A DNA stretch of 38,864 bases from an uncultured Bacilli bacterium (GCA_947627385.1 CANQVV010000001.1:1-38864); one strand, 5' to 3'; shown: positions 12,654 to 26,304, counted from the first letter of the stretch. The notes: generated from the sequence alone by a model not told the origin. Translations and numbers: made by a program.

Positions 12654-13580
12654 ATGAATAGATTTAAAAAATTAATCTTTTTATTTATTTTTTGTGGTAT
12701 TATTTATTATTTATTTAAAAACAACTATTTATTAATAACCTCAGTTAATGATGCAGTTTATTTATGGCTTAATAAAGTATTTCCTTTTCTTTTTATTATG
12801 TTTATTATAAATGATATCATTATTAATACTAATTTATTAGATATTTTAAATGGCTATTTGGCTTCCATTTTTAATAAAATATTTCATACTTCATCATCTT
12901 CGGTAGAAGCCTTTATTTTATCTATTTTTAGTGGTACCCCATCCAGTGCCTTTATAATATTAGAAAAATTAAATAATAAATCTATTAATATAGATGATGC
13001 TAATAAATTAATTGCCTTTACTTTTTTTGTTAATCCCCTATTTTTATATAATATATTAAGTTCAACATTTAATACTTATATAGCTCTTAAAATTATTATT
13101 ATACATTACTTAACCAATATTATTATTGGCCTCTTATTTAGGGGAAAAATAAATAATAATACTAATAATTTCGATAATATTAAAACAAAGGAAAATATTT
13201 TTATTTTACTTACTAAGGCCATAAATAAAAGTTTTAATACTCTTTTAATGATTTTAGGCACTATTACTTTTTATATGATTTTAACTAATTTAATAACTAA
13301 TATCATATCATTTAATAATCTTTCTAATTTCTTAATTAAAGGATTACTTGAAATAACCCAAGCTTTAAATATATTAAACAAAGTAAATTATCCTAGCATC
13401 TTAAAAGAGATGATGGCTATATTTATCATCTCTTTTGGTGGTATGTCTATTCATAGTCAAGTTTTAGCTATTATTAATAATACAAAAATTAAATATTGTT
13501 ATTTTTTAATTGGCCGAATTTTACATGCTTTAATTAGTACAACTATTTATTTTTTTATTACTATTGCTACTTTTAGTTAA
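12654..13580 (+). CDS. ylbJ: Sporulation integral membrane protein YlbJ-like (nucleoside-recognition Gate family)
   Basis: LWLNKVFPFLF, SGTPS, NPLF, GLLEIT and SFGGMSIHSQ motifs; divergent from the ylbL-like gene. Confidence 0.8.
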   Translation: MNRFKKLIFLFIFCGIIYYLFKNNYLLITSVNDAVYLWLNKVFPFLFIMFIINDIIINTNLLDILNGYLASIFNKIFHTSSSSVEAFILSIFSGTPSSAFIILEKLNNKSINIDDANKLIAFTFFVNPLFLYNILSSTFNTYIALKIIIIHYLTNIIIGLLFRGKINNNTNNFDNIKTKENIFILLTKAINKSFNTLLMILGTITFYMILTNLITNIISFNNLSNFLIKGLLEITQALNILNKVNYPSILKEMMAIFIISFGGMSIHSQVLAIINNTKIKYCYFLIGRILHALISTTIYFFITIATFS

Positions 13581-14153
13581 AAAATTATTTAAATCTAAAT
13601 TACTACTATCAGAAGAAAAACTAATTTCCAGATCATCAATAATATTATTATCTTCAACATTATTTTTTTCATTAAAAGGATTATTATATAATTTGATATT
13701 TATTAAGAAATAATATTTATTATTATCATTATAGTAAGTAAATGTATAACATGGATCAATTTCAGCACCTTTCATTTGCCATGAATTTTTAGTACCCTTT
13801 GCTTGTTGATATCTAAAATAATATCTAGTATCATCATCTCCTAATTCATTAGTATAATCTTCTTTATCTGAGGTAAGTATAGAAGAAATATTATTATTAA
13901 AATGAAAAATAATAGTAATTTTATCATTAGTTGAATTATCTTCAACACTAGTTAGTGTATACTTATCTAAATCTGCTTCAATAGTTTTAATAACTTCCAT
14001 CCGATTAATTTGATTATTATAAGCAAAATTATTATTATCAGTTTCATTTTTTAAATCAATAAGTAACTCATATAAAAACATCAATATAGCACTTATTAAA
14101 ATTATACTTACTAAAAGTTCCATTAAACTCATTCCGTGATTATTAAGTTTCAT
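13530..14153 (-). CDS. Type IV pilin-like protein (class III signal peptide)
   Basis: KLNNHG|MSLMELLVSIILIS with Glu at +5. Confidence 0.8.
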   Translation of the reverse strand: MKLNNHGMSLMELLVSIILISAILMFLYELLIDLKNETDNNNFAYNNQINRMEVIKTIEADLDKYTLTSVEDNSTNDKITIIFHFNNNISSILTSDKEDYTNELGDDDTRYYFRYQQAKGTKNSWQMKGAEIDPCYTFTYYNDNNKYYFLINIKLYNNPFNEKNNVEDNNIIDDLEISFSSDSSNLDLNNFLTKSSNSNKKINSCTN

Positions 14154-14155
14154 AA

Positions 14156-15154
14156 TTATCCCTCACGATCAAAGTAAGCATAACAAGTTGTTTGATGATT
14201 ACTAGTTGTAAAACTGTTATTACTATAATATACTTCGGCATTAGAATTATCACATAAATAACCAACATATTTATAACCTGTTGTTGGTATTGAATAAGTA
14301 CGACTATACTTTTTACCAGTTGTATAACCTGAATGGCCAAAATTAGACTCTAACATATAAATTAAATCAGCATTATCACTATTATTATGATAATAAATAT
14401 TACATTCATCATTACTAACAACACTAAATTCTAAACCATTATCACTATTTTTAATAGTACTTCCATGTAGACAAGTATAACTTGCAAAAGAATAATTAAT
14501 GCCAGGAATATTCTCTACTTTACGATATTTTAAAGTCTCAAAACTATAAGTACCAGTTGTATCTTCAACAAATATATTAAGAGTTAAATTATTTTTAACA
14601 AACAATGCTTCACAAACAGTTTTATCTTGGGCTTTGATATCAAACTTACGAGTATTATTATCAAAACTAATTTGGGCATTATTACTACAACTAGAACTAA
14701 TTAACTCATAATCGGTCGTTGGCACACTATCAATCAAAATTTTAGAACTATTTAAATATTCTTTTTGATAAATTTCCAAAACAATATCTGAATCACTAGC
14801 AATAAAATAGGCATAACAAGTATCTTTATTAGTTGCTGCAATTAAGACATTACCATCTTCATAACTAATTTTTGAATTTCCTTTACAATAACTAAAATCT
14901 GGGGAAAAATTATAACCATAAGTTGGTAATTCATCAACTTCTTCATATTCTAATGTATCTTTATTCCAAACCATTAAAATTAAATTAATATCAGCTTCAT
15001 TTTTAGTAGCAAAACCATTTTTGATATCATATTTATATGAAGTTAATAAATTACGATTTTTAGAGTATGAATTAAGTAAAAAAATCATTAATAATAAAAA
15101 CATCAAAAAGAAAGTATATATTAAGCTTGTCGAAATAAAACCATTTTTCTTCAT
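14156..15154 (-). CDS. Minor pilin-like protein with four Cys-pair repeats
   Basis: MKKNG|FISTSLIYTFFLMF (no Glu+5, as in tip/ComGG-like pilins), followed by four repeats of about 65-75 aa. Confidence 0.65.
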   Translation of the reverse strand: MKKNGFISTSLIYTFFLMFLLLMIFLLNSYSKNRNLLTSYKYDIKNGFATKNEADINLILMVWNKDTLEYEEVDELPTYGYNFSPDFSYCKGNSKISYEDGNVLIAATNKDTCYAYFIASDSDIVLEIYQKEYLNSSKILIDSVPTTDYELISSSCSNNAQISFDNNTRKFDIKAQDKTVCEALFVKNNLTLNIFVEDTTGTYSFETLKYRKVENIPGINYSFASYTCLHGSTIKNSDNGLEFSVVSNDECNIYYHNNSDNADLIYMLESNFGHSGYTTGKKYSRTYSIPTTGYKYVGYLCDNSNAEVYYSNNSFTTSNHQTTCYAYFDREG

Positions 15155-15156
15155 AA

Positions 15157-15729
15157 TTACACACTTACCCAACTATAATAATTTTGACAAATATCTTTTT
15201 GACAAGTATTATACTCAACTACTAAAATATAATTACAAGAAATATCTATATAAAGAGTTTTTAAATAATTTAGCATATTATCACTTAAATTCATATATAA
15301 ACCATTACAATTTTCATATTCTAAACAATCTTTATCCAATGAACATTCTAAGGTACAATCTTTTAAATTATCTATTTTATTTTCTTTTAAAATAATTATT
15401 TGAGATACTTCAAAATCCGTAATTAATTTAGAAATAAAATTTTTATAATTTTCATGATTAATAAAAAGATTGGGATATTCCATACCAACAGTTACAAAAT
15501 ATTTATCATTATCATTAACCAATTCTTGGATTGGTAAATCAATATTTACTTCACTCAATCTTTCTTTTAAATAATGAGTACGATAAATATAACTTACATC
15601 ATCATAATCAATTCTAGTTTTTTCAGATTGTAGTACATTAGCAAAAGAAGAATATAAAATTAAAAGAGAACTTGTTAAAACAACAATAGCAACAATAGTT
15701 TCAACAAAGACAAAACCCTTTTTGTTCAT
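15157..15729 (-). CDS. Type IV pilin-like protein (class III signal peptide)
   Basis: MNKKG|FVFVETIVAIVVL with Glu at +5; Cys-rich C-terminal part. Confidence 0.82.
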   Translation of the reverse strand: MNKKGFVFVETIVAIVVLTSSLLILYSSFANVLQSEKTRIDYDDVSYIYRTHYLKERLSEVNIDLPIQELVNDNDKYFVTVGMEYPNLFINHENYKNFISKLITDFEVSQIIILKENKIDNLKDCTLECSLDKDCLEYENCNGLYMNLSDNMLNYLKTLYIDISCNYILVVEYNTCQKDICQNYYSWVSV

Positions 15730-15751
15730 ACTCTTCACTTCCCTATTATTA

Positions 15752-15780
15752 ATTATAACTTAAATAATTACATCTTGCAA
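15752..15780 (-). promoter_or_regulatory. sigma-A promoter of the pilin-like operon
   Basis: TTGCAA-17-TATAAT. Confidence 0.6.
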
Positions 15781-15782
15781 TT

Positions 15783-15812
15783 AAAAAACATTGAAGTTAA
15801 TCAATGCTTTTT
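15783..15812 (-). terminator. Probable terminator after essC
   Basis: CATTGA-6-TCAATG core flanked by A and T runs. Confidence 0.45.
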
Positions 15813-18800
15813 AGTTACCTTTAATATTAAAAATTTCAACTATTTTTACATATTGAGCTTTACCACGTTTAACAACAAAGGCAAAATTATCAGGGACATC
15901 TTCCCGCATTTCCGGAAGTCTTTGTGATACTTTTAAACAAAATTGATCATTTATACCACTACCAAGCCAAATACCATTAGTATTATTAACGTTACTACGA
16001 TACCATGAATCAAGTTCAATTTTCTTAATACCATCAATACTATCAACTAAAATAAAGTTGATAATACCTAAATTTTTACCTTGATTAAATATTTCATCTA
16101 ATTTTAGTTTATTCGAAGAATTTAAAACATTTTTAAATTCTTCAACCCCAATTATTAGAACAGTAATTGGTTTAATATTTTGGAAGATGCTTTTATCAAA
16201 ATTATTATTTTGATATTTTTCATTATTTTCCATCACATAATTATATAAACTAGTAAATATTTCATTTATATTTGTATCATAATATTTATAATATTTTTTA
16301 TTATTCTCATCAATATTAATTTCAACCATATTTAATACATATAATAAACTTTTTTGCAAATAAACAATTTGATTAATTAAAGGATTTAAGAAATTTTCTA
16401 AAATAGAAGTATCTAAACCAGTTACAATAGTAGCATAATTTTTAGTAAAATCATAAGTAACTACTTCTAAATCATTTTTATCGATTCCTACAACTAATTC
16501 ATCACCTTTACCTAAGGCAGAAGCAATATCATTATAACCAACTACTTCCGGTAAAGTTACAATTGGTTTAGCAAAAGTTTTTGATATTTTAGCAATCTCT
16601 AAACATTTTGATTTAACAGTTTTAACTATATCATCACGTTCACAAACAAGAGCAGTTTGAAATTCATAAATATCATCAATTTTTACTAAGCCTCGACCAT
16701 AAATATTAGCAGGATAATTTTTCCGAACATTACCTAAAACTGTTGCATAATCACCTTCATTATTTTGTTGTAATGTATAGAATAAACCAAAGTTTTGTCT
16801 TAGTTTAAATCTAACTCCATTTGGTGAATTAACTGTTATAACAAAATAAATACCATATTTTGTACAATCTCTTGTTAAGATTACCAAATCATCTTCTAAA
16901 TTACTATAATTTTCTTGATAAGCATCAAAATTATTTATGACCACCACAATACTTGGAACAGATAAACCACTATTACGGCAATAATTTAAATAGTCACCAC
17001 CAAAATCAGCAAATAATTTTTTTCTTTCCTCAATAGTTTTATTAAGCATTTTAAATAAATTATAAGTTTTTTCTTCATCATTACTTGCTAATATATCACC
17101 AACAATTGGACAATCTTTAAACATTTTTAAAGTTTCTGCACCAAAATCAATGATATAAAAATTTAATTCATTAGCTGTATAACATAACATTGAAGAATAT
17201 ATAAGAGTTGTAATAAAGTTTTCTTTTCCACTACCACTAGCTCCATAAATAGCAGCATTTCCTTCCATCGTTAGTGGAATAGTTAAAAGTCTTTGTTCTT
17301 GTTCATTTGGAACATCATATTCACCAATAATAGGATTAATAACATAATTTTCTTTTTGATAATTATATTTATTAGCTAAGTCTTCTACTTTAATTAAAGC
17401 AGGAATTTTAGCAAGCCATAAAGGATTACATTTAATATTTTGCTCTTTGGCTAAATTATCCAAATATTTGACAATATTTAATAATTCTTCTCCTAAATTA
17501 ACTGTATTAGTTGCCTTTTTCTCACGAGTTTCCTTAGTTTTAATTGGATAACCAATATTATTGATAAAATTAATAGATGTATCTAATGTTTTATTTACTT
17601 TTTCAGTAGGAATATAATTGCCTCCGGCCCATGCTGCTTGTCCTAAAACAAAAACTTCATTGTAGCCAACTTGAAAATAAAATCTTCCTGTTTGCTTTAA
17701 TAAGGCCGCATCAGGACATTTAATAACATCATTAGAATCAGATTTATCTTGTACTTTTAAACAAACTCTAAAACGAGCATTACTCCAAATTTGAGGGTCA
17801 ACTACACCACTTGGTTTTTGCGTAGCAAGAATTAAATGAACACCTAAACTACGACCAATTCTGGCTGTACTAATTAACTGCTCCATAAATTCTGGTTGTT
17901 GCGTTTTAAGTTCCGCAAATTCATCACTGATTATAAATAAATGTGATACTGGTTCATCAACAATTTTTTCACGATACATTTTTTGATATTTATAAATATC
18001 AATAGTACTTTCACCAGATTTTTCTCTGGCTTTATTAAATAAAGCTTGTCTTCTTTTAAGTTCACTTTCAATACTTGCCAAACTTCTTTTTATTTCATTG
18101 GTATCTAAGTTGGTAATTGTTCCAACTAAATGTGGTAATTTTAAACCTGTACTACTATTTTCAAAAGCACCAGCTAAGCCACCACCTTTATAATCAATTA
18201 AAATGAATTGAACTTCATAAGGATGATAATTTATCGCCATTGATAAAATGTAAGTAATAATAAATTCAGATTTACCACTACCAGTCATGCCAGCAATTAA
18301 GCCATGAGGGCCATGATATTTTTCATGTAAATCAATACTTATTTTTTCACCATTTTTACCATAACCAACTGGGGCAGCTAAATTTAACATAGGATTACTA
18401 TTTGCCCATCTATTTAATGCATTTAATTGTTCTATTTTACCAACATCATACATTTCTAAAAATCTTAATACATCTGGAAGTTGACCTTCATCATTATTAA
18501 TAAATTCAATAGGAATATTAGCCAAAGTTTTAGAAATAGTTTCATAATCTATTTGATAAGAAAAATCTACATTGTATTGAATATTATCTTCAATATTAGC
18601 ATTATTACAAAGTTGAGCTTTTTCACCATATAATTCTATGAAATTATTAATTTGATCAGGCAAATTAGTTACTTTACGATCTAAAATAAATAAACTAAAA
18701 CCTAAATACTTTTTACTTTCTAATATGGAATTAATAATTTCAAAATTTCTAATTTTTTTCAAATCATCAGTAATAATTAAATATAATTTATCATATTCAC

Positions 18801-20439
18801 TATTATCTTCAACTCGATCTTCATTTTCTTTACGTGAATTATAAATTTGCTCTAAATAATAACATATTTCTTTATATTCATCATTATTAGTAGCAAAGAA
18901 ACGCATTCTTTTATCATCAGTAAATGTATGTGGAACATCTTTTAAAAATTTCCATTGATAAGCATTTTCTTCATTAGTTAAAATTATTATTTTTAAATCA
19001 TCATAACTATGATAAGCTAAAAGTTGAACAATTAAACGCCGCATATACTCTCCAGATAATTGTTCTTCACCAACAAGACTACTAATATAATTTTTAATAA
19101 AGGAAAAAGTTATTGGAACACTTGTTAAATTTTTAGGTTCTTGGCCTAATTTTAAAACCATTTCTTTCAAATTATCTTCATCTAATGTAAAGTGTTCATC
19201 GGGATACTTAATATCAATTTTCATTGGACAATTACCAATGCCTAAACTAACTTCTAAAAAATCTTCATCTTGAATTCTTTTTTGCCACAAAGTAACCCTT
19301 TTATTAATAATAATATCAACTATCTCTTCTATTTTGGGATATTTACGGTATAACATAATAGATTGTTCTTTAATAGCATTTGCAATTTGAATTCTTTTGC
19401 TTTCAATATATTCACTGTATTTTTCTTGTCTCTTTTTTTCTTGCTTTTTTTTACTTCTTTTTTCATAAAAACCAATAAATAATGGCCAAATAAATATACT
19501 AGCAAACATTGCTCCGCACATAATTAAAGATGGCAAAGCACGATCCATTGTCGTAGTACCATTCATTAAACCATTAACAGCTGTATACCCCGATACTAAG
19601 GATGTCATTGACATTGTAATCATCGGACCAATAGTTAATATAAAAGGACTATTTTGATTATCAGCCTTAGCCGGCGGTTCATCTATTTGTAATTCCAAAG
19701 ATTTAATTTCACTATCAAAACGTGGTTTCTTATGAAAATATTCTTTTTCATCATATAAAGCATATTCTACTTCTTCTTCTACTTCACTATAATCACATTT
19801 TGCCGGCAATAATTTATTAACTGCTGCTTCCTTAACTGTTATGTCATTTCTTTTTTGAACACCTAAATAAATAACTTGATTAACATTATCTTGAACAGCA
19901 ATAATAACTACTTTTATTCCTTGGCTAAAAATAACATCACCATAATTGACAATCTTTTGTTTATTAACTCTAACATCATTAACATATATTCCTGATGGAA
20001 TATCATAATCATAAACAACTAACTTATTATTTGTTCTTTTAATTAAAAATGTATTAGGAATATTTTTGCAATAAATGAAATTATCAGCATTATTGCCAAT
20101 GGCAATTCCATTGTCAATTAAACCAGATATATTATAATATAAATATTCATTTAAAATATTAGAACAATATAATAAAATAGTTCTATTTTCTTTTTGATTT
20201 TTAATGGTATAAAATTTACCTTCTTCTAAATAAACATATGGAAAACTATAATTATTATTATTAATAATATAAACTTCTTTATTACTTATTAACTTCCATT
20301 TCTTACCTTCGGGCTCAATTAAAATTAAATTTCTACTAATCCCACTAGCATCAGTATCAGAAATCCAATAACTACCAACATAAACATTTGGTAGTAGTAT
20401 ATTTTTAATCTTTTTATTATTGATTATTGATACTCGCAT
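15811..20439 (-). CDS. essC: Type VII secretion ATPase EssC/YukB (FtsK/SpoIIIE family)
   Basis: FHA-like N-terminus and two TM helices. D1 has HGPHGLIAGMTGSGKS, DYKGGG, DEFAELK and GRSLGVHLILATQKP; D2 has GASGSGKE; D3 is degenerate. Confidence 0.95.
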   Translation of the reverse strand: MRVSIINNKKIKNILLPNVYVGSYWISDTDASGISRNLILIEPEGKKWKLISNKEVYIINNNNYSFPYVYLEEGKFYTIKNQKENRTILLYCSNILNEYLYYNISGLIDNGIAIGNNADNFIYCKNIPNTFLIKRTNNKLVVYDYDIPSGIYVNDVRVNKQKIVNYGDVIFSQGIKVVIIAVQDNVNQVIYLGVQKRNDITVKEAAVNKLLPAKCDYSEVEEEVEYALYDEKEYFHKKPRFDSEIKSLELQIDEPPAKADNQNSPFILTIGPMITMSMTSLVSGYTAVNGLMNGTTTMDRALPSLIMCGAMFASIFIWPLFIGFYEKRSKKKQEKKRQEKYSEYIESKRIQIANAIKEQSIMLYRKYPKIEEIVDIIINKRVTLWQKRIQDEDFLEVSLGIGNCPMKIDIKYPDEHFTLDEDNLKEMVLKLGQEPKNLTSVPITFSFIKNYISSLVGEEQLSGEYMRRLIVQLLAYHSYDDLKIIILTNEENAYQWKFLKDVPHTFTDDKRMRFFATNNDEYKEICYYLEQIYNSRKENEDRVEDNSEYDKLYLIITDDLKKIRNFEIINSILESKKYLGFSLFILDRKVTNLPDQINNFIELYGEKAQLCNNANIEDNIQYNVDFSYQIDYETISKTLANIPIEFINNDEGQLPDVLRFLEMYDVGKIEQLNALNRWANSNPMLNLAAPVGYGKNGEKISIDLHEKYHGPHGLIAGMTGSGKSEFIITYILSMAINYHPYEVQFILIDYKGGGLAGAFENSSTGLKLPHLVGTITNLDTNEIKRSLASIESELKRRQALFNKAREKSGESTIDIYKYQKMYREKIVDEPVSHLFIISDEFAELKTQQPEFMEQLISTARIGRSLGVHLILATQKPSGVVDPQIWSNARFRVCLKVQDKSDSNDVIKCPDAALLKQTGRFYFQVGYNEVFVLGQAAWAGGNYIPTEKVNKTLDTSINFINNIGYPIKTKETREKKATNTVNLGEELLNIVKYLDNLAKEQNIKCNPLWLAKIPALIKVEDLANKYNYQKENYVINPIIGEYDVPNEQEQRLLTIPLTMEGNAAIYGASGSGKENFITTLIYSSMLCYTANELNFYIIDFGAETLKMFKDCPIVGDILASNDEEKTYNLFKMLNKTIEERKKLFADFGGDYLNYCRNSGLSVPSIVVVINNFDAYQENYSNLEDDLVILTRDCTKYGIYFVITVNSPNGVRFKLRQNFGLFYTLQQNNEGDYATVLGNVRKNYPANIYGRGLVKIDDIYEFQTALVCERDDIVKTVKSKCLEIAKISKTFAKPIVTLPEVVGYNDIASALGKGDELVVGIDKNDLEVVTYDFTKNYATIVTGLDTSILENFLNPLINQIVYLQKSLLYVLNMVEINIDENNKKYYKYYDTNINEIFTSLYNYVMENNEKYQNNNFDKSIFQNIKPITVLIIGVEEFKNVLNSSNKLKLDEIFNQGKNLGIINFILVDSIDGIKKIELDSWYRSNVNNTNGIWLGSGINDQFCLKVSQRLPEMREDVPDNFAFVVKRGKAQYVKIVEIFNIKGN

Positions 20440-20455
20440 AAGCCCTCTTCCTATT

Positions 20456-20713
20456 CTACATAATTATTATCTTAGTTCCATTATATATTTTAGCATCTTT
20501 TACATAAACATCATTATTATATTCAATGCCTGTCATTTGATCAAACATTCTAACTTCTTCCATTTTACGCAGATATATACCTGCTGATAAATCAGCAAGA
20601 CAATATAAAATATTCTTTTTTATTGTTCCAATTTTTTTATTATTGGGAATATATACATCATATTCACATTCTAGTTCTGGAACAGCCACGGTTACTAAAT
20701 ATTTATTTTTCAT
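20456..20713 (-). CDS. Ubiquitin-like EsaB/YukD family protein
   Basis: 85-aa beta-grasp pattern (YLVTV..YDVYIP...IYNGTKIII) directly upstream of essC; RBS AAGGGG. Confidence 0.75.
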   Translation of the reverse strand: MKNKYLVTVAVPELECEYDVYIPNNKKIGTIKKNILYCLADLSAGIYLRKMEEVRMFDQMTGIEYNNDVYVKDAKIYNGTKIIIM

Positions 20714-20766
20714 AAATTCCCCTTTTTTATTTAATATAGGCAAATAAACTGTTAATAAATAACAGT

Positions 20767-21921
20767 TTATTCAGCATTAGATTCAATATATTCAACTATT
20801 CTTTGATGTTTATCATATTCTTCGGTTTTATCAAGAAGTTCACTGACAATACCACTCTTTTCTTCATTATAGGTATCGTATAACTCATTTACTTTATTTG
20901 CAAAAGCTTGTTTCTCAGCTTCATTATTTGTTCCGTTATTATCAACAAATAATTGTTTATATTCTTGAAATAAAGCATTATCACTATATTTTTTACTAAT
21001 ATCCTCAAATGTTAACTTTTCTACTTCTCTAGCATTTGGATTAGTAAGAATTGGATCTTCTAATGAATAATGTATTCCTGTTTCATCAATATATGCATAT
21101 ATTGGTTTTGTTGGATCATAATTCTCATTTATCAATAATTGCAGTAAATCAACGGATGTATATTTATCTGAATTTAATGTTCTTAAAAGTTCAGTAATTT
21201 CATCTTGAATTTTTTCAATATAAGCTTTATATTCATCATAAGATTTAAAACTTTTTAGTAAATCTTGTAAGCCATTAATGATTAATAAAGTTTCAAGTTC
21301 ATAATTAACATTACTAAGATCTTTATATAACTTTTCTAGTTTATTCTCTAATTTTTCTTGTTCTGCTGGATCTGTTGTTTCTTCTAATAATCTTTTTACT
21401 TCTTCTATCTCATTTTCAATACCAGCAATATTATCTTCTAATGGTTTAGTATCTTGCAACATTTTCATTTTTGCAAACATTTCATCATATGGTGATGGAG
21501 TTACAGTTTGCTCTTCATTAGTAGTTGTAGTTGAACCACCACTGATAATTCCACCTACACTACCTAAACCACCAAAAGCTGATTGAATAGAGCTTGTTGT
21601 TGAATCAACACTTGTAAGATTAATATCATTATATGAATATTGAAAAGTATCTATATCACCAATTGTAGCAACAATATTACGTTCAATTTCTTGAACTTTA
21701 GCAATGTAGTCATCCAACCATTGAATTAACAAATTATAGCATTTTTGTGATTTTTGACAAGCTAAATCAATACCTTCTGTTATTAATAAAGAAACATCAT
21801 TTACATCAGACTTCATATAATTACTAAAAGCAGTATAACCATCATCGAATTTATTTTTTTCTGCGTAAATTTCATTTCTTATTTCTCTTAATTTATCTAA
21901 ATCTATTTTATAATGTGCCAT
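20767..21921 (-). CDS. Candidate T7SS substrate: WXG/LXG-like helical N-terminus, Ser/Thr/Gly linker, coiled coil
   Basis: MAHYKIDLDKL start, amphipathic helices, low-complexity linker STTSS...GGSTTTT; located in the WXG operon. Confidence 0.55.
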   Translation of the reverse strand: MAHYKIDLDKLREIRNEIYAEKNKFDDGYTAFSNYMKSDVNDVSLLITEGIDLACQKSQKCYNLLIQWLDDYIAKVQEIERNIVATIGDIDTFQYSYNDINLTSVDSTTSSIQSAFGGLGSVGGIISGGSTTTTNEEQTVTPSPYDEMFAKMKMLQDTKPLEDNIAGIENEIEEVKRLLEETTDPAEQEKLENKLEKLYKDLSNVNYELETLLIINGLQDLLKSFKSYDEYKAYIEKIQDEITELLRTLNSDKYTSVDLLQLLINENYDPTKPIYAYIDETGIHYSLEDPILTNPNAREVEKLTFEDISKKYSDNALFQEYKQLFVDNNGTNNEAEKQAFANKVNELYDTYNEEKSGIVSELLDKTEEYDKHQRIVEYIESNAE

Positions 21922-21936
21922 ATATACTCTCCATTA

Positions 21937-22410
21937 TCACTTAAAACCAAACGCATTAAACGGAAGCAAAGTATTTAATGTAGATTCAATGCTTCTTTGT
22001 TTATTTTTATAATTTATTAAATTATGAGAACTTGTAATACAAAGATTATTATAATATCTATAATAATACATAGAATCTTCATCATTTTTACCAATATATT
22101 GATCTCTCATTCTCTTGTAACTAGCCACATTATTTTCTTCCATGATTATTTTAGGATTTAAATCCTGCCACTTAGCAATTTCATCACAAATTGCCAATGC
22201 ATCACTAAGACTTATTTTAAAATTATTTAAAAATTCTAAATTTTTACTTAGACCTTCCATAAATGTTGTCTTAGCTAGTGATGAATTCCAATATGCTTCA
22301 CCCCCTAAGGCTTCTGAGGCATTAATTAACGATTCATAATTTATATTATTCATTAAGTTTGTGATTGCAGATTTTAATCCTGCTACATTTACACCACTAT
22401 AATACATCAT
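21937..22410 (-). CDS. Divergent WXG100-like protein with helical extension
   Basis: Central YWNS...AKTTF in place of WxG, helix-turn-helix pattern, strong RBS. Confidence 0.55.
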   Translation of the reverse strand: MMYYSGVNVAGLKSAITNLMNNINYESLINASEALGGEAYWNSSLAKTTFMEGLSKNLEFLNNFKISLSDALAICDEIAKWQDLNPKIIMEENNVASYKRMRDQYIGKNDEDSMYYYRYYNNLCITSSHNLINYKNKQRSIESTLNTLLPFNAFGFK

Positions 22411-22432
22411 ATTTCCTCCTATTAAAAATCAT

Positions 22433-22849
22433 TTAAATTTCCGGGTTTTTAGGTCCGCCAATTCCACTGCCAGGTGTGTAAGAATTAAAATCATTTTGAG
22501 CATAATTTTCTTCTGGAGATAAACTAGAAGAATCCACAAAATTAGCATCAGCCAAATCATTTACACCAGCCATAGTAGAATTGTCTACACTTTGATAATT
22601 TTGAAACATTTGTTGCAATGCACTGGCAGCTTCATATAACCCTCTAATATTTGGGTCATAGTGATTAATGTCAGCAAAAGTAATGGTTGCAAAATGACTA
22701 GCTGCTTGTCCACACCAATTGGGATAATCTAATTTTCTATAAATATCTTTAACAGAATTCAAATTATCTTCAATATTTTTAGTAAAATTATGGATCATTT
22801 CAACTTGTTCATATGCAATTCCATAATCACTTATATCAGTTTGATTCAT
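22433..22849 (-). CDS. WXG100 family protein with disordered acidic tail
   Basis: WCGQAA at the centre; YQSVD motif. Confidence 0.75.
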   Translation of the reverse strand: MNQTDISDYGIAYEQVEMIHNFTKNIEDNLNSVKDIYRKLDYPNWCGQAASHFATITFADINHYDPNIRGLYEAASALQQMFQNYQSVDNSTMAGVNDLADANFVDSSSLSPEENYAQNDFNSYTPGSGIGGPKNPEI

Positions 22850-22864
22850 AAATTTTCTCCTTTA

Positions 22865-23209
22865 CTATGCACTACAATTTTTAGCACCAAATTCTTGATC
22901 TAAACTTTCATAGTAATTTTTAACAATTACTAAATCATTGGCATGTTGATCAATTCTTGATCTTATATGATCCAGATTATACAATAAAAAATTTGAAGTT
23001 GATATAAAATTATCAGCATCTGGACCTTTCCATATATTAAATAATGTAGTATTTATTGCATAATCAATTTGGCCTTTATATTCTTGTAAGCTTTCTGATT
23101 TTACATTTAAATTTTCAATTGACGTTTGTATTACATCAGTGTCAATTTCAATTTTTCCTAAATTTACTCCTCCATCCATATTAGAGACAATATAATTTTG
23201 TCGAGCCAT
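22865..23209 (-). CDS. WXG100 family protein
   Basis: WKGPDADNF; YESLD motif. Confidence 0.8.
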   Translation of the reverse strand: MARQNYIVSNMDGGVNLGKIEIDTDVIQTSIENLNVKSESLQEYKGQIDYAINTTLFNIWKGPDADNFISTSNFLLYNLDHIRSRIDQHANDLVIVKNYYESLDQEFGAKNCSA

Positions 23210-23289
23210 TTTTTCACCTCTCTCCCAAAAATAATTATTTAATTATATTTGGGACAAAGTCCCTTTATAAATAAAGGGAAATAATTTTA

Positions 23290-23601
23290 TTATAATCCTG
23301 ATACAGCATTTTGAGATGCTTTATCAACTTTTTGATAGTTTTCAGATGCTGTTTGAATATATTTTGCATAACTTTCAACAGCTTCATTAAAAACATGGAA
23401 AGTACTAGCAAAAGAATCAAATTTTGCTCTTACTTCACTAGCAGCAGTTCCATCAAAAATACCACTACCATTATTAATTTCAGAAAAATAACTTTTTAAA
23501 GAATCAAAAGTTTCTATCATTTTTTGAGATTCTGTCAATAATTCAGCAGCAATTTGAGCTGCTCTATCATAATTTATATCAGTCATCATACCATTATTCA
23601 T
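23290..23601 (-). CDS. WXG100 family protein (FxG variant)
   Basis: 103 aa, central FDGTAA, YQKVD motif, RBS AGGAGGTG. Confidence 0.78.
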   Translation of the reverse strand: MNNGMMTDINYDRAAQIAAELLTESQKMIETFDSLKSYFSEINNGSGIFDGTAASEVRAKFDSFASTFHVFNEAVESYAKYIQTASENYQKVDKASQNAVSGL

Positions 23602-23624
23602 AATGTTTATTCACCTCCTAATTT

Positions 23625-23915
23625 TTATCTGTGTACCATACTTCTATTAGTATCTTGGGCATTTTGATACTCATTAGCAGTATTATGCATATAAGTTCCA
23701 AGTTCAGTTAATGTTTTATGAAATCTATTCATTTCCTCAGCTTGTTCATTAACTTTTGCAGAATAACTATCGATATCGCTACCTTTCCAAACTGTTTTTA
23801 ATTCAGCATTTTCATTAATTATTTTGTCTAAACTTGTTCTAAAATCAGCTGTACTAGATTCAACTTTACTAGCTAAACTGTGTAATGCTGATGAGTCAAC
23901 AACTAAGTTTGCCAT
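23625..23915 (-). CDS. WXG100 family protein (EsxA-like), first gene of the operon
   Basis: 96 aa, central WKGSD, RBS AGGAGGTG. Confidence 0.85.
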   Translation of the reverse strand: MANLVVDSSALHSLASKVESSTADFRTSLDKIINENAELKTVWKGSDIDSYSAKVNEQAEEMNRFHKTLTELGTYMHNTANEYQNAQDTNRSMVHR

Positions 23916-24013
23916 TAAATTTCACCTCCTTATTTTTATATTCTAACACTATCAACACTTTTCTATTCTTGCATTTAAGTGTCAAAACACTTCTTCTATC
24001 CTCCTATAATAAA

Positions 24014-24043
24014 ATTATAACGCGTGTTAATTTCTTTTGTCAA
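24014..24043 (-). promoter_or_regulatory. sigma-A promoter of the T7SS operon
   Basis: TTGACA-18-TATAAT about 100 nt upstream of the first WXG100 gene. Confidence 0.65.
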
Positions 24044-24059
24044 TTATTTTGCATTTTAT

Positions 24060-24480
24060 ATGTCAAGGAACAAAAGCAAATTGAATAAATTAATATTTAT
24101 TTTCATTTACTTTGATAAGCCTCACGGCTTATCTTTTCTGGTTCATAGGATTTCTCTCCTCCACAGACCATATTTCCGACAGTCACTGCCATACTTTTTT
24201 GATGTTTAATTTTTTTATTAATGTTTAATTTTGATATTTACCTTTATAGTACAATTAACACTTTTATCATATCATAACTAGTAAGTTTAGAATTATCTTT
24301 CTTCTTACTTAGCATTATATTATATACAAGTCTTGAACAACCTATTGTATTATTTATTAATTCTTGTTGTTTTAAACTTGGATACATTCTAAATTTGTAT
24401 GCACGATTAACTAACGTAACCATAACCTCCTGAACAATACAATCATATCATACAAACGAATGTATTTGTAAGTGCTTTTA
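24060..24480 (-). mobile_element. Internally deleted IS200/IS605- or IS607-type tnpB element
   Basis: Retains the tnpB 5' part and a 3' segment TATGGCAGTGACTGTCGGAAATATGGTCTGTGGAG...ATGAACCAGAA typical of tnpB 3' ends, followed by hairpins. Exact ends were not determined. Confidence 0.7.
24244..24423 (-). pseudogene. tnpB: Truncated TnpB (N-terminal HTH_OrfB_IS605 region only, 59 aa); not in the ORF track
   Basis: MVTLVNRAYKFRMYPSLKQQELINNTIGCSRLVYNIML...; RBS AGGAGG; no RuvC or Zn finger. Confidence 0.85.
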
Positions 24481-24525
24481 ACCAATTTTTTAACTTTCTT
24501 TATGATAAAAAAGGTATATTAGATT

Positions 24526-26304
24526 TTACTCTAATATACCTTTAATTCTTCTAACACCAGCACTTGATGATTCTTCTTTTACTATTTTAAAATGACCTAA
24601 TACACCAGTATTTTCGACATGAGGTCCGCCACATATTTCTTTGGACAAATTACCAATAGTATAGACTTTAACAATATCACCATATTTTGAATCAAATGTA
24701 CCATGAGCTCCTTCTTTTTTGGCTTGCTCATAAGGAATTTCTTCAAAAGTAACAGGGGTATTTGTCACAATCATTTCATTTACCCGATCTTCAACTTTTC
24801 TTTTTTCTTCATCTGTTAATTTATGATCACAATTAAAATCAAATCTTATTCTTTCACTAGTTATATTGCAACCCTTTTGCATAACATCAGGACCATATAT
24901 TTCTTGTAAAGTAGCTAAAAGTAAATGGGCCAAAGTATGATATTTAGTTGATTCTTCTGAATTATCAGCAAGACCACCTTTAAATGAACCAGCATCAATA
25001 GTTCTAGATTTTTCTTGATGTTCTTTAAAAGCTCTTTCAAATTCTTCTACATTAACTTCTAAATTATTTTCTTTGGCAAGTTCGATAGTCATTTCAATTG
25101 GAAAGCCAAAAGTATCAAATAATTTAAAAGCATCAGTACCACTAATAACATTACCTTCTAAATGTTTAATAGTTTTATAAAATAATTTTTCGCCATCTTT
25201 TAAAGTTTTACTAAACTTATTAAACTCATTAGTCATTTCTCTAAATACTACTTCTTTATTTTTAGATAATTCACTATAAACGCCTTGATATTCATCAATA
25301 TATATTTGAGCTAGTTCTGGTAAAACATTATCTGTAATATTTAATTTCTTTAAATGTCTAATCGTTCTTCTTAAAAGTCTTCTTAAAACATATCCAGCCC
25401 CAACATTACTCGGAGTTATACCATGATCATCTGCTAAAATAAAAGTACTTGTTCTTACATGATCCATAATAATTCGCATGCTTTGCGCATTTTCTTCATA
25501 AGAAACATTAGATAATTCCTCTAATCTTTTCTTAATCCCTGCAAAAATATCTGAATCATAGACACTAGGTAAACCATTTAATACACTAATAGTTCGCTCT
25601 AAGCCCATTCCAGTATCAACATTTTGTTGTTTTAATTTTGATAAAGTGCCATCTTCACTTTTATAATACTCCATAAAAACGTCATTCCAAATTTCTAAGT
25701 ATTTACCACAATCACAAGCGGGATTACATTCAGGTGAACATTTTTCTTTGCCAGTATCATAAAACATTTCTGTATCGGGACCACATGGACCAATACCACT
25801 ACCTAAAATCCAAAAATTATTTTTCTTTGGTAAATAAAATAAATGATCTTCTTCGACTCCTAAACTTTGCCAAATATTATATGATTCAGTATCTTTTGGA
25901 AAATCATCATCACCAGCAAAAACTGTAAAATATAATTTGTCTTTGGGAATATTTAAGTATTCTTCACTTGTCAAAAATTCATAACTATAAGTAATTGCTT
26001 CTTTTTTAAAATAATCACCTAATGACCAATTACCTAACATTTCAAAAAATGTCAAATGAGAAGCATCACCAACTTCATCAATATCACTAGTTCTAATACA
26101 TTTTTGGACATCGGTAAGTCTTTTACCCGCAGGATGACTTTCACCAAGTAAATAAGGCACTAATGGATGCATACCAGCTGTGGTAAATAATACCGTTGGA
26201 TCATTTTCTGGTATTAGAGATGCTGATGGAATAATTTTATGATCTTTTTCTTGATAAAAATTTAAATATAATTCTCTCAACTGTGCTGCACTAATCTTAT
26301 TCAT
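24526..26304 (-). CDS. alaS: Alanine--tRNA ligase, short (592 aa) form
   Basis: DPTVLFTTAGM, HLTFFEMLGNWS, DTGMGLER, editing motifs HTLAH and CGGPH, and AGVRRI; no C-Ala domain. Confidence 0.97.
   Translation of the reverse strand: MNKISAAQLRELYLNFYQEKDHKIIPSASLIPENDPTVLFTTAGMHPLVPYLLGESHPAGKRLTDVQKCIRTSDIDEVGDASHLTFFEMLGNWSLGDYFKKEAITYSYEFLTSEEYLNIPKDKLYFTVFAGDDDFPKDTESYNIWQSLGVEEDHLFYLPKKNNFWILGSGIGPCGPDTEMFYDTGKEKCSPECNPACDCGKYLEIWNDVFMEYYKSEDGTLSKLKQQNVDTGMGLERTISVLNGLPSVYDSDIFAGIKKRLEELSNVSYEENAQSMRIIMDHVRTSTFILADDHGITPSNVGAGYVLRRLLRRTIRHLKKLNITDNVLPELAQIYIDEYQGVYSELSKNKEVVFREMTNEFNKFSKTLKDGEKLFYKTIKHLEGNVISGTDAFKLFDTFGFPIEMTIELAKENNLEVNVEEFERAFKEHQEKSRTIDAGSFKGGLADNSEESTKYHTLAHLLLATLQEIYGPDVMQKGCNITSERIRFDFNCDHKLTDEEKRKVEDRVNEMIVTNTPVTFEEIPYEQAKKEGAHGTFDSKYGDIVKVYTIGNLSKEICGGPHVENTGVLGHFKIVKEESSSAGVRRIKGILE

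Follow-up and report, generated by a model that had tools for sequence, protein, structure and literature searches.

Type VII secretion systems (T7SSs) that do without EssB are already in print, since variants T7SSc to T7SSj were published in 2024 by Garrett, Higginson and Palmer (PMC11217815). According to that survey, the T7SSe cluster is named in Neobacillus sp. 114, T7SSd (Actinomycetota, e.g., Olsenella uli) is its close relative, and T7SSg (Acetivibrio and Paenibacillus), which adjoins type IV–type pilus genes, is the simplest described form, with two WXG100 proteins, TsgB, TsgC, and one more component. The two simplest subtypes, T7SSd and T7SSg, have five components, and none of the ten, as they are set out in that survey, is limited to components A, B, and C; the survey drew on RefSeq, in which uncultured genomes such as those studied here are mostly missing (PMC11217815). 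We analyzed a 38,864-nucleotide (nt) stretch of DNA from an uncultured Bacilli bacterium (GCA_947627385.1, CANQVV010000001.1:1-38864), hereafter the window, which carries a self-contained 8.7-kb T7SS gene set of a reduced kind. This island comprises the universal core (the ATPase EssC/TsxC, the ubiquitin-like TsxB, and the WXG100 proteins TsxA and TsxA2), one to three small helical proteins, and a 384–amino acid (aa) putative effector. We estimate a probability of about 0.68 that it is a core-only offshoot of the T7SSd/e lineage and a complete and functional secretion machine. Because EssB-less variants have been published, the absence of EssB is not the new point; the new point is that the lineage also lacks the T7SSe accessories. 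Our literature search turned up neither an A/B/C-only T7SS nor any T7SS described from this lineage. A preliminary description of the window had proposed a possibly undescribed variant, which is right in part: EssB-less forms as such are known, whereas the A/B/C-only content matches no described subtype.

The largest gene of the island encodes EssC (15811-20439, minus strand, 1,542 aa), whose presence was confirmed by a TIGR03928 match of 1,006 bits (cut-off 778) over profile positions 4-1295 of 1296. Its layout, with two N-terminal FHA domains, two transmembrane segments, a DUF region, and three FtsK-type ATPase domains, is that of the membrane FtsK/SpoIIIE-type ATPase of the universal core. 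The N-terminal profile matches FHA domains, B. subtilis YukB (9qks_G), and Geobacillus EssC (5fwh), Walker A motifs occur at residues 717 and 1066, and the D1 Walker A motif together with a DEFAELK block is invariant across 31 aligned EssCs. A Kyte-Doolittle hydropathy scan found transmembrane segments in no other protein of the operon, in line with the preliminary description, which had named EssC as the only membrane component. To place this protein, we scanned one genome per species with conserved EssC motifs and found full-length relatives in cultured bacteria, including three Neobacillus species, two Bacillus strains, Clostridium cibarium, Acetobacterium, Ruminococcus flavefaciens, and Enorma phocaeensis. 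The window EssC shares 38-40% best-segment identity with the three Neobacillus EssCs over nearly its full length, FHA region included, 31% with the EssC of the actinomycete E. phocaeensis, and 24-28% with 11 canonical EssCs of its own class.

These relationships were resolved in a tree of 65 EssCs (IQ-TREE short search, LG+G4, with approximate likelihood-ratio [SH-aLRT] supports only), for which six FHA-less EssC-like proteins from a different family served as the root. The 11 canonical EssCs, including those of loci L057 and L061, group together in a clade of their own (SH-aLRT 100). The clade sister to it (support 100) comprises 20 EssCs of other taxa, among them those of Neobacillus, Bacillus, Acetobacterium, and Acutalibacteraceae, as well as the EssC of locus L042 and 27 EssCs of the window's family, which include the window's own and form a separate clade (support 100) within it. 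The window EssC does not, then, group with EssB-associated EssCs. A first tree, built on class-only sequences, had made the family clade the sister of canonical T7SSb; this was a sampling artefact and is superseded by the larger tree. By this phylogeny, the window EssC belongs to the T7SSd/e lineage and not to T7SSb, which the preliminary description had wrongly taken as its comparator, and its nearest cultured relatives are found in Neobacillus loci that encode a kinase together with a PP2C phosphatase and a DUF6382-FHA protein. We assigned the subtype labels used here from gene content and a single named genus. The TIGR03928 model is not specific to T7SSb, since the EssCs of Neobacillus (1,116-1,132 bits) and Enorma (838 bits) also exceed its cut-off.

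We then asked whether the T7SSb partners EssB, EsaA, and EssA are encoded anywhere. Because the window's own genome is only 71% complete (66 contigs), we also searched its relatives, i.e., 42 genomes of the genus and 301 genomes of the order, 299 of which belong to one family and 299 of which are at least 90% complete. While EssC is found over cut-off in 10 of the 42 genus genomes and 143 of the 301 order genomes, EssB/YukC (PF10140) exceeds its cut-off in none of them, nor in the own genome. The order sample gave 13 weak YukC matches, all on the transmembrane part of the profile and 12 of them in EssC-less genomes. The EsaA N-terminal model (TIGR03929), searched in the own genome and the 42 genus genomes, had no match over cut-off, and EccB, EccE, and Pfam YukD matched nothing in the own genome. 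As a positive contrast, all 12 EssC-positive genomes from other families in a class sample of 200 were also YukC-positive, and the canonical control locus L024 yielded EssB and EsaA with E values of 4.9e-43 and 9.6e-14, respectively. EssA is a different matter: its model TIGR03927 gave only four weak matches (E ≥ 0.01), all outside the locus, but EssA, like EsaB, goes undetected even in L024. The preliminary description had called for a whole-genome search for EssB, EsaA, EccB, and EccE homologs, which found none in the own genome, and its picture of a stripped-down system without EssB and EsaA is supported. Its reading of a T7SSb that lost these partners is not, because the EssC lies within the T7SSe-like lineage, outside the EssB-associated clade, and T7SSb parts are therefore not expected here.

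The same searches bear on a second explanation, that of a canonical T7SSb whose essB, esaA, and essA genes happen to lie on unassembled parts of the genome. The incompleteness and fragmentation of the assembly speak for it, as does an EssC that passes the NCBIfam "T7_EssCb_Firm" cut-off, although this model, as seen above, is not specific to T7SSb. Against it stand the complete lack of YukC in an order sample that is EssC-rich and nearly all of high completeness, the canonical loci of the class, which keep these genes contiguous with essC in the order EsxA-EsaA-EssA-EsaB-EssB-EssC, the housekeeping genes at both island borders, and the position of the EssC outside the canonical clade. We regard this explanation as having next to no chance of being correct.

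If the island belongs with T7SSd/e, the accessory genes of T7SSe are the ones to look for. In the Neobacillus loci, a YukD-family protein and two WXG100 genes occur together with a protein that combines DUF6382 and FHA, a PP2C phosphatase, and a TPR repeat–bearing membrane Ser/Thr kinase, a gene set that matches the T7SSe composition given by Garrett, Higginson and Palmer (PMC11217815). We built profiles of the kinase, phosphatase, and DUF6382-FHA components (D, F, and J) from the Neobacillus proteins and applied them to 28 family loci (the window, 7 from its genus, and 20 from other genera). With EssC matches excluded, one of the 28 family loci scored, versus 16 of 20 loci of other taxa. The TseF (PP2C) profile matched none of the 28, and neither a Pfam scan nor the D profile found a TseD-type kinase in the island. 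DUF6382 (PF19909) exceeds its cut-off in a single one of the 301 order genomes (G315), where the gene lies beside essC; in the own genome, PF19909 has no match at E ≤ 0.001 and our own DUF6382-region profile none at E ≤ 1, while the Neobacillus genomes used as positive controls score. Some loci of other taxa encode TseI-like Big_2 transmembrane proteins of about 760-780 aa. A phmmer search found no counterpart of these in the family loci, and the own genome gave only generic Big_2 surface-protein matches elsewhere. The hydropathy scan revealed no TseI-, TseH-, or TseK-like transmembrane protein in the island, TseH and TseK being proteins without a usable model. Other parts of the T7SSe signature are divided: two WXG100 proteins and a B component are present, but the conserved phosphothreonine-binding motif of the TseC FHA domain is not kept by the window copy, whose second FHA domain (FHA2) reads G-N, lacks S-x-x-H, and has lost the phosphothreonine-binding residues (alignment by eye). 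Several other family EssCs retain the S-x-x-H of FHA2 in the same alignment.

The exceptional order genome, G315, is informative. Its locus L042 (contig C1, around 808514-828300) consists of essC, TsxB, and two WXG genes followed by a 228-aa DUF6382-like protein and a 260-aa kinase domain, which is of the soluble Ser/Thr type without a transmembrane segment. Its EssC retains, by eye, all three phosphothreonine-binding motifs of FHA2 (G-R, S-x-x-H, and N-G) and groups with the T7SSe-like EssCs of Acutalibacteraceae, not with the family clade. L042 is a family member of intermediate form, with accessory remnants. Clostridium cibarium was considered as a cultured core-only example and rejected, three DUF6382 genes being present elsewhere in its genome. 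As a separate observation, T7SSe-like loci of Acutalibacteraceae and Acetobacterium (L104, L142, L151, and relatives) encode 500- to 710-aa proteins with an Mbeg1-like/lipase-3 domain, which fit the "reverse lipase" cargo mentioned for the Neobacillus T7SSe (PMC11217815); four neighbors of family EssCs have a zinc-dependent phospholipase C domain instead.

The B component is a small protein encoded directly upstream of essC (20456-20743, minus strand; probably 85 aa, with a start ATG at 20713). Searches of Pfam, YukD included, and of NCBIfam gave no match for it, and its sequence profile retrieved nothing significant from the PDB, YukD not being recovered, which is why its fold was predicted. 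The model, computed from 28 homologs, is a beta-grasp fold with a pLDDT (predicted local distance difference test) score of 93.2, and Foldseek aligns it with ubiquitin-like proteins at TM-scores of 0.7-0.78, including the ubiquitin-like domain of EccD from ESX-5 (7npt_D8). The C terminus reads ...KIIIM and has no Gly-Gly, as is the case for the small ubiquitin-like protein of the universal core. In phmmer searches, the family B proteins, including the window's, match the B protein of a T7SSe-like locus (best family matches among those listed, E 1e-13 to 1e-20), and the Neobacillus counterpart itself barely reaches Pfam YukD (27.3 bits). The predicted fold, the missing Gly-Gly, the phmmer link, and the YukD-matching Neobacillus counterpart identify this protein as the TsxB/EsaB/YukD component. 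The gene adjoins essC in 28 of the 28 family loci, which, with the beta-grasp model, bears out the preliminary assignment of an esaB gene.

The WXG100 proteins of the universal core lie at the head of the operon. The first, a 96-aa TsxA/EsxA-like protein (23625-23915, minus strand), passes Pfam WXG100 (PF06013, 34.9 bits; cut-off 27.3) and matches TIGR03930 with E 2.3e-10. The second, a 103-aa TsxA2-like member of the WXG100 family (23290-23601, minus strand), scores slightly below the PF06013 cut-off (26.0 bits) and matches NF035934 (ESAT6_2) with E 3.6e-11. We compared the remaining small proteins by hhalign with a WXG profile built from 27 family WXG100 proteins. The 114-aa small helical protein (22865-23209, minus strand) has W-K-G at the WXG position and is WXG-like by profile only (hhalign 95.7%, E 9.6e-9; TIGR03930 E 7.7e-4); it is a possible Lap-like targeting partner. 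The 138-aa protein (22433-22849, minus strand) is weakly WXG-like, with W-C-G at this position (hhalign 27%, E 6.7e-4; PF06013 E 0.02). Neither the 157-aa protein (21937-22410, minus strand; hhalign 6%), which has no Pfam or NCBIfam match, no usable match in the Atlas, and no assigned family, nor the N terminus of the 384-aa protein (2%) shows sequence support for WXG similarity. The six WXG-like genes of the preliminary description thus come down to two solid ones and up to two weaker ones (114 and 138 aa), the 157- and 384-aa proteins being unsupported by sequence.

The 384-aa protein (20767-21921, minus strand) is a species-specific putative effector. Its AlphaFold2 model (mean pLDDT 74) shows an N-terminal helical hairpin (helices at residues 8-37 and 42-97), a Gly/Ser/Thr linker, with residues 83-140 disordered, and a C-terminal domain with a pLDDT of about 90. 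The model has no match to PDB folds at E ≤ 0.001 (Foldseek), and the protein itself has only three matches at E ≤ 0.001 among 5.8 billion sequences, the window's own included. The nearest named Atlas clusters are of the LXG/WXG100 type (score 0.80), which is a lead only. Complex prediction of its N terminus with the 114-, 138-, and 157-aa proteins did not discriminate (score 0.81; control up to 0.70). For the contig at large, four gut DNA runs of a second study yielded only short, low-depth pieces (85-99% identity; longest full-length piece among those listed, 510 nt), too little to judge strain variation. Consistent with the preliminary description, no toxin or immunity family is recognizable among the operon proteins by Pfam, NCBIfam, Atlas, or Foldseek searches. 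Architecture and position suggest that the 384-aa protein may be a polymorphic effector with small helical partners, by analogy with other T7SSs.

How general is this layout? A WXG100 BLAST cluster is present in 19 of the 28 family loci. Of the secretion-related Pfam families, just WXG100 (24) and DUF4176 (8) are seen repeatedly among 330 neighbors within six genes of essC, where kinases, phosphatases, FHA proteins, AAA+ ATPases, and YukC do not recur. In five loci (L037, L040, L044, L050, and L054), all of them in conserved housekeeping synteny, essC and the ubiquitin-like gene are accompanied by a single small WXG protein, to which L037 and L044 add a second conserved small helical protein. 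The preliminary description had asked for gene-order conservation in related genomes, and what holds in all 28 loci is the adjacency of the ubiquitin-like gene and essC. These findings show that a large family of gut bacteria with small genomes has the core-only layout as its rule. Four loci (L017, L018, L047, and L048), the ones in which TsxB precedes essC, also encode a 70- to 80-aa protein directly upstream of TsxB, with an N-terminal zinc ribbon (CxxC...CxxC) and, at the C terminus, a transmembrane helix; in that sub-clade it is a candidate for a small membrane component, and the window lacks it.

Two further observations concern EssC-like proteins elsewhere. Another family of the same class (L025 and L067-L071) has a different EssB-less arrangement, in which two or three WXG100 genes are joined by genes for an approximately 610-aa protein, a one-transmembrane protein of 643-710 aa, an approximately 80-aa protein, and an FHA-less EssC-like ATPase of 1,185-1,301 aa that scores below the TIGR03928 cut-off (249-405 bits); a YukC search of 15 genomes from this other family gave no match. 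Bacillota-type EssC contigs also turn up in bins labeled Muribaculaceae, Bacteroides, or Succinivibrio (L091, L102, L108, L109, L118, and L135). These contigs are mostly of 26-35% GC (L135, 58%), and their presence in Gram-negative bins probably reflects mis-binning or wrong labels rather than transfer.

Next, we considered whether the island might be what is left of a degenerating T7SSe-like system that has ceased to secrete. The loss of accessory genes, the degenerate phosphothreonine motif of the window FHA, a TnpB fragment at the island border (see below), and the patchy spread of the system (10 of 42 genus genomes) could all be taken as signs of decay. The sequences argue otherwise. Almost all full-length family EssCs among the matches listed (about 1,500-1,600 aa) have open frames, with an internal stop in only three (G253, G110, and G174), and the catalytic motifs do not vary. 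The ratio of nonsynonymous to synonymous substitution rates (dN/dS), taken from six pairs of family loci, is 0.03-0.22 for EssC and 0.03-0.19 for TsxB, well under 1 although rough because dS is near saturation (0.9-3.6), and both proteins appear to be under purifying selection across the family. Moreover, cargo-type genes (WXG100, DUF4176, and LXG-like) keep diversifying beside the core. We therefore consider a non-secreting remnant very improbable, and the core-only offshoot remains the reading that we develop below.

The island has the hallmarks of an insertion. It consists of eight minus-strand open reading frames, running from 23915 down to 15811 with intergenic gaps of ≤80 nt, which agrees with the co-oriented operon first proposed. 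In two EssC-less congeners (G022 and G014), three prepilin-like genes start about 70 nt after an alaS-like gene; in the window, the same three genes follow essC, and the alignment rejoins the shared sequence immediately past the essC hairpin. Since the flanking genes abut in these congeners, the operon is an insertion. Elsewhere, the interval between alaS and the prepilin genes holds one unrelated gene (third congener) or seven (fourth congener). At the upstream border, between the alaS terminator and the T7SS promoter, lies a TnpB fragment (24244-24423, minus strand), the 59-aa N-terminal helix-turn-helix of an IS605-family OrfB/TnpB (PF12323, 57.8 bits, E 7.7e-16); the rest of that gene is missing. 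A 10-nt string, ATTAAAGGTA, occurs immediately ahead of the stop codons of both essC (about 15811-15830) and the alaS-like gene (about 24540-24560), one copy per border of the 8.7-kb insertion, and could be a recombination microhomology or due to chance in AT-rich DNA. Within the genus, housekeeping alanyl-tRNA synthetases (AlaRSs) are 72-87% identical versus 38-46% for EssC, the genus EssCs are scattered over the family clade, and some genomes have two EssC copies. Because of this, we conclude that the island behaves as an exchangeable accessory module.

Its boundaries are marked by predicted transcription signals. On the minus strand at 24014-24043 lies a predicted sigma-70–type promoter (TTGACA, 18 nt, TATAAT), which was confirmed as the sole 12-of-12 consensus match in 13000-24600, a consensus match only, promoter-like sites overall being no commoner than in shuffled sequence (103 versus 99). 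Past the essC stop, at about 15783-15807 (minus strand), a hairpin read by eye (GCATTGA, 6 nt, TCAATGT; 7 bp, two of them G-C pairs) is followed by a T6 run. The terminator reported at this place is thus present, but it is weak and lies under the threshold of the terminator scan. A strong hairpin terminator of the preceding alaS-like gene is found at 24543-24510. The three prepilin-like genes (13530-15738, minus strand; 193, 338, and 207 aa) encode an N-terminal methylation-motif transmembrane segment and have weak matches, to ComGF/ComGE for the 193-aa protein and to PF07963 (20.9 bits) for the 207-aa protein. They are conserved beside alaS in four congeners, the middle gene ranging from 127 to 414 aa between species, and were rejected as part of the T7SS since they adjoin alaS in congeners without one. 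The alaS-like gene itself (24526-26304, minus strand) encodes 592 aa, with the catalytic core and the second additional domain, and its product is of similar length in five congeners (about 589-598 aa). Bacterial AlaRSs are usually longer than this.

Could the missing envelope-spanning parts be explained by a wall-less cell? We rejected this idea, because the own genome has five penicillin-binding protein transpeptidase genes and family loci lie near Mur ligase, amidase, and sporulation genes. The cells are walled, and the loss is therefore not explained by a wall-less lifestyle. In the mechanism that we propose, an EssC hexamer, with two transmembrane helices per protomer, would serve as both motor and membrane channel. 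TsxB would dock on the FHA/DUF region and fix the N-terminal domains, in analogy to YukD on YukB. Cryo-electron microscopy of the B. subtilis proteins is reported to show YukD in contact with the FHA and DUF domains of YukB as well as with its first ATPase domain (PMC12637312). The C-terminal ATPase domains would recognize the two WXG100 proteins and the effector, the latter along with its small helical partners, for export, and FHA phospho-regulation, which would be ancestral in the lineage, may have been lost in the window copy. Export by the island is a probable function, predicted from sequence, and a channel formed by EssC alone is an inference. The stronger proposition, that EssC and one ubiquitin-like protein are a sufficient T7 translocon in a walled, spore-forming monoderm, we put forward only tentatively, as somewhat less likely true than false.

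The principal alternative is that the system is not minimal, its partners being encoded outside the island or being too small or divergent to recognize. Candidates include single-transmembrane proteins of the TseH, TseK, or EssA kind, the housekeeping Ser/Thr kinase-phosphatase pair, and immunoglobulin-like surface proteins that would pass cargo through the wall. Small transmembrane components do escape hidden Markov models even in a canonical locus, and the own genome encodes one PP2C phosphatase and one kinase, whose genes overlap in the usual housekeeping arrangement (contig C3, 33857-36384), as well as three Big_2 proteins elsewhere. The FHA2 motifs kept by some family EssCs, above all by that of L042, also speak for this alternative, as does the zinc-ribbon protein at 4 of 28 loci. 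Yet the island is a discrete insertion whose site is empty in two congeners, so that T7SS-specific parts should travel along with it, no membrane protein besides EssC recurs across the 28 loci, the window FHA2 has no phosphothreonine-binding residues, and the zinc-ribbon protein has only a marginal match in the own genome (E 9e-4, on another contig). Hidden partners therefore seem unlikely, albeit worth serious attention.

Several points weigh against a complete core-only machine. To our knowledge, all T7SSs examined in experiments (T7SSa and T7SSb) have an ATPase that depends on membrane partners. At least one sub-clade has an extra membrane part, given the zinc-ribbon protein at its four loci, and the window EssC is sister to that sub-clade. 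The own genome is 71% complete, EssA, TseH, and TseK are small single-transmembrane proteins beyond profile detection, and the PP2C-kinase pair and the Big_2 surface proteins could act in trans. Finally, dS is close to saturation, and the tree, besides being a short search with SH-aLRT supports only, holds no reference sequences from the subtype lists of PMC11217815.

At stake is the division of T7SS parts into those that build the channel and those that serve just to regulate or anchor it. We know of no bench-studied T7SS that does not need several membrane partners, and these differ between subtypes. If the ATPase and its ubiquitin-like protein did prove sufficient, EccB/D/E, EssA/B/EsaA, and TseD/H/I/K would be regulatory or envelope add-ons and not channel parts. 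A widespread, selectively maintained three-part core in a portable 8.7-kb island would suit reconstitution and structural work, and the family, in which 143 of 301 sampled genomes have the system, could serve as a natural minimal T7SS model. The automated label "EssC, T7SSb" hides a diversity of subtypes in uncultured gut lineages that RefSeq-based surveys miss. In the gut, the fast-changing, species-specific cargo of the island points to a role in competition between close relatives.

Compared with known systems, the island most resembles T7SSe, with which it shares the EssC/TseC lineage (SH-aLRT 100; 38-40% identity to Neobacillus EssCs), two WXG100 genes, a discrete ubiquitin-like TsxB with sequence homology, and cargo types (LXG-like proteins, DUF4176, and small helical partners). 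It differs in that the kinase TseD, the PP2C phosphatase TseF, the DUF6382-FHA protein TseJ, and the immunoglobulin-like TseI are missing from the island, with no recognizable TseH/K-like transmembrane protein, in that the phosphothreonine-binding residues of the window FHA2 are lost, and in that the family EssCs form a clade of their own. T7SSd is likewise small, with five components, and one large clade unites the EssC of Enorma phocaeensis with that of the window; however, T7SSd has a kinase, TsdH, and a large TsdI but no ubiquitin-like protein, and the island is the reverse. The likeness to T7SSg lies in a small component list and in the pilin-like genes after essC. By its description, however, TsgC has no FHA domains and T7SSg has the DUF5050 beta-propeller protein TsgL, and the island owes its pilin neighbors to the chance of where it was inserted, since T7SS-less congeners have these genes as well. 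With T7SSb (Staphylococcus aureus Ess and Bacillus subtilis Yuk), the island has in common an FHA-bearing EssC, a ubiquitin-like EsaB/YukD, a WXG100 EsxA, and LXG-type cargo with helper proteins, but EssB and EsaA are undetectable, and its EssC, at 24-28% identity, stands outside the EssB-associated clade.

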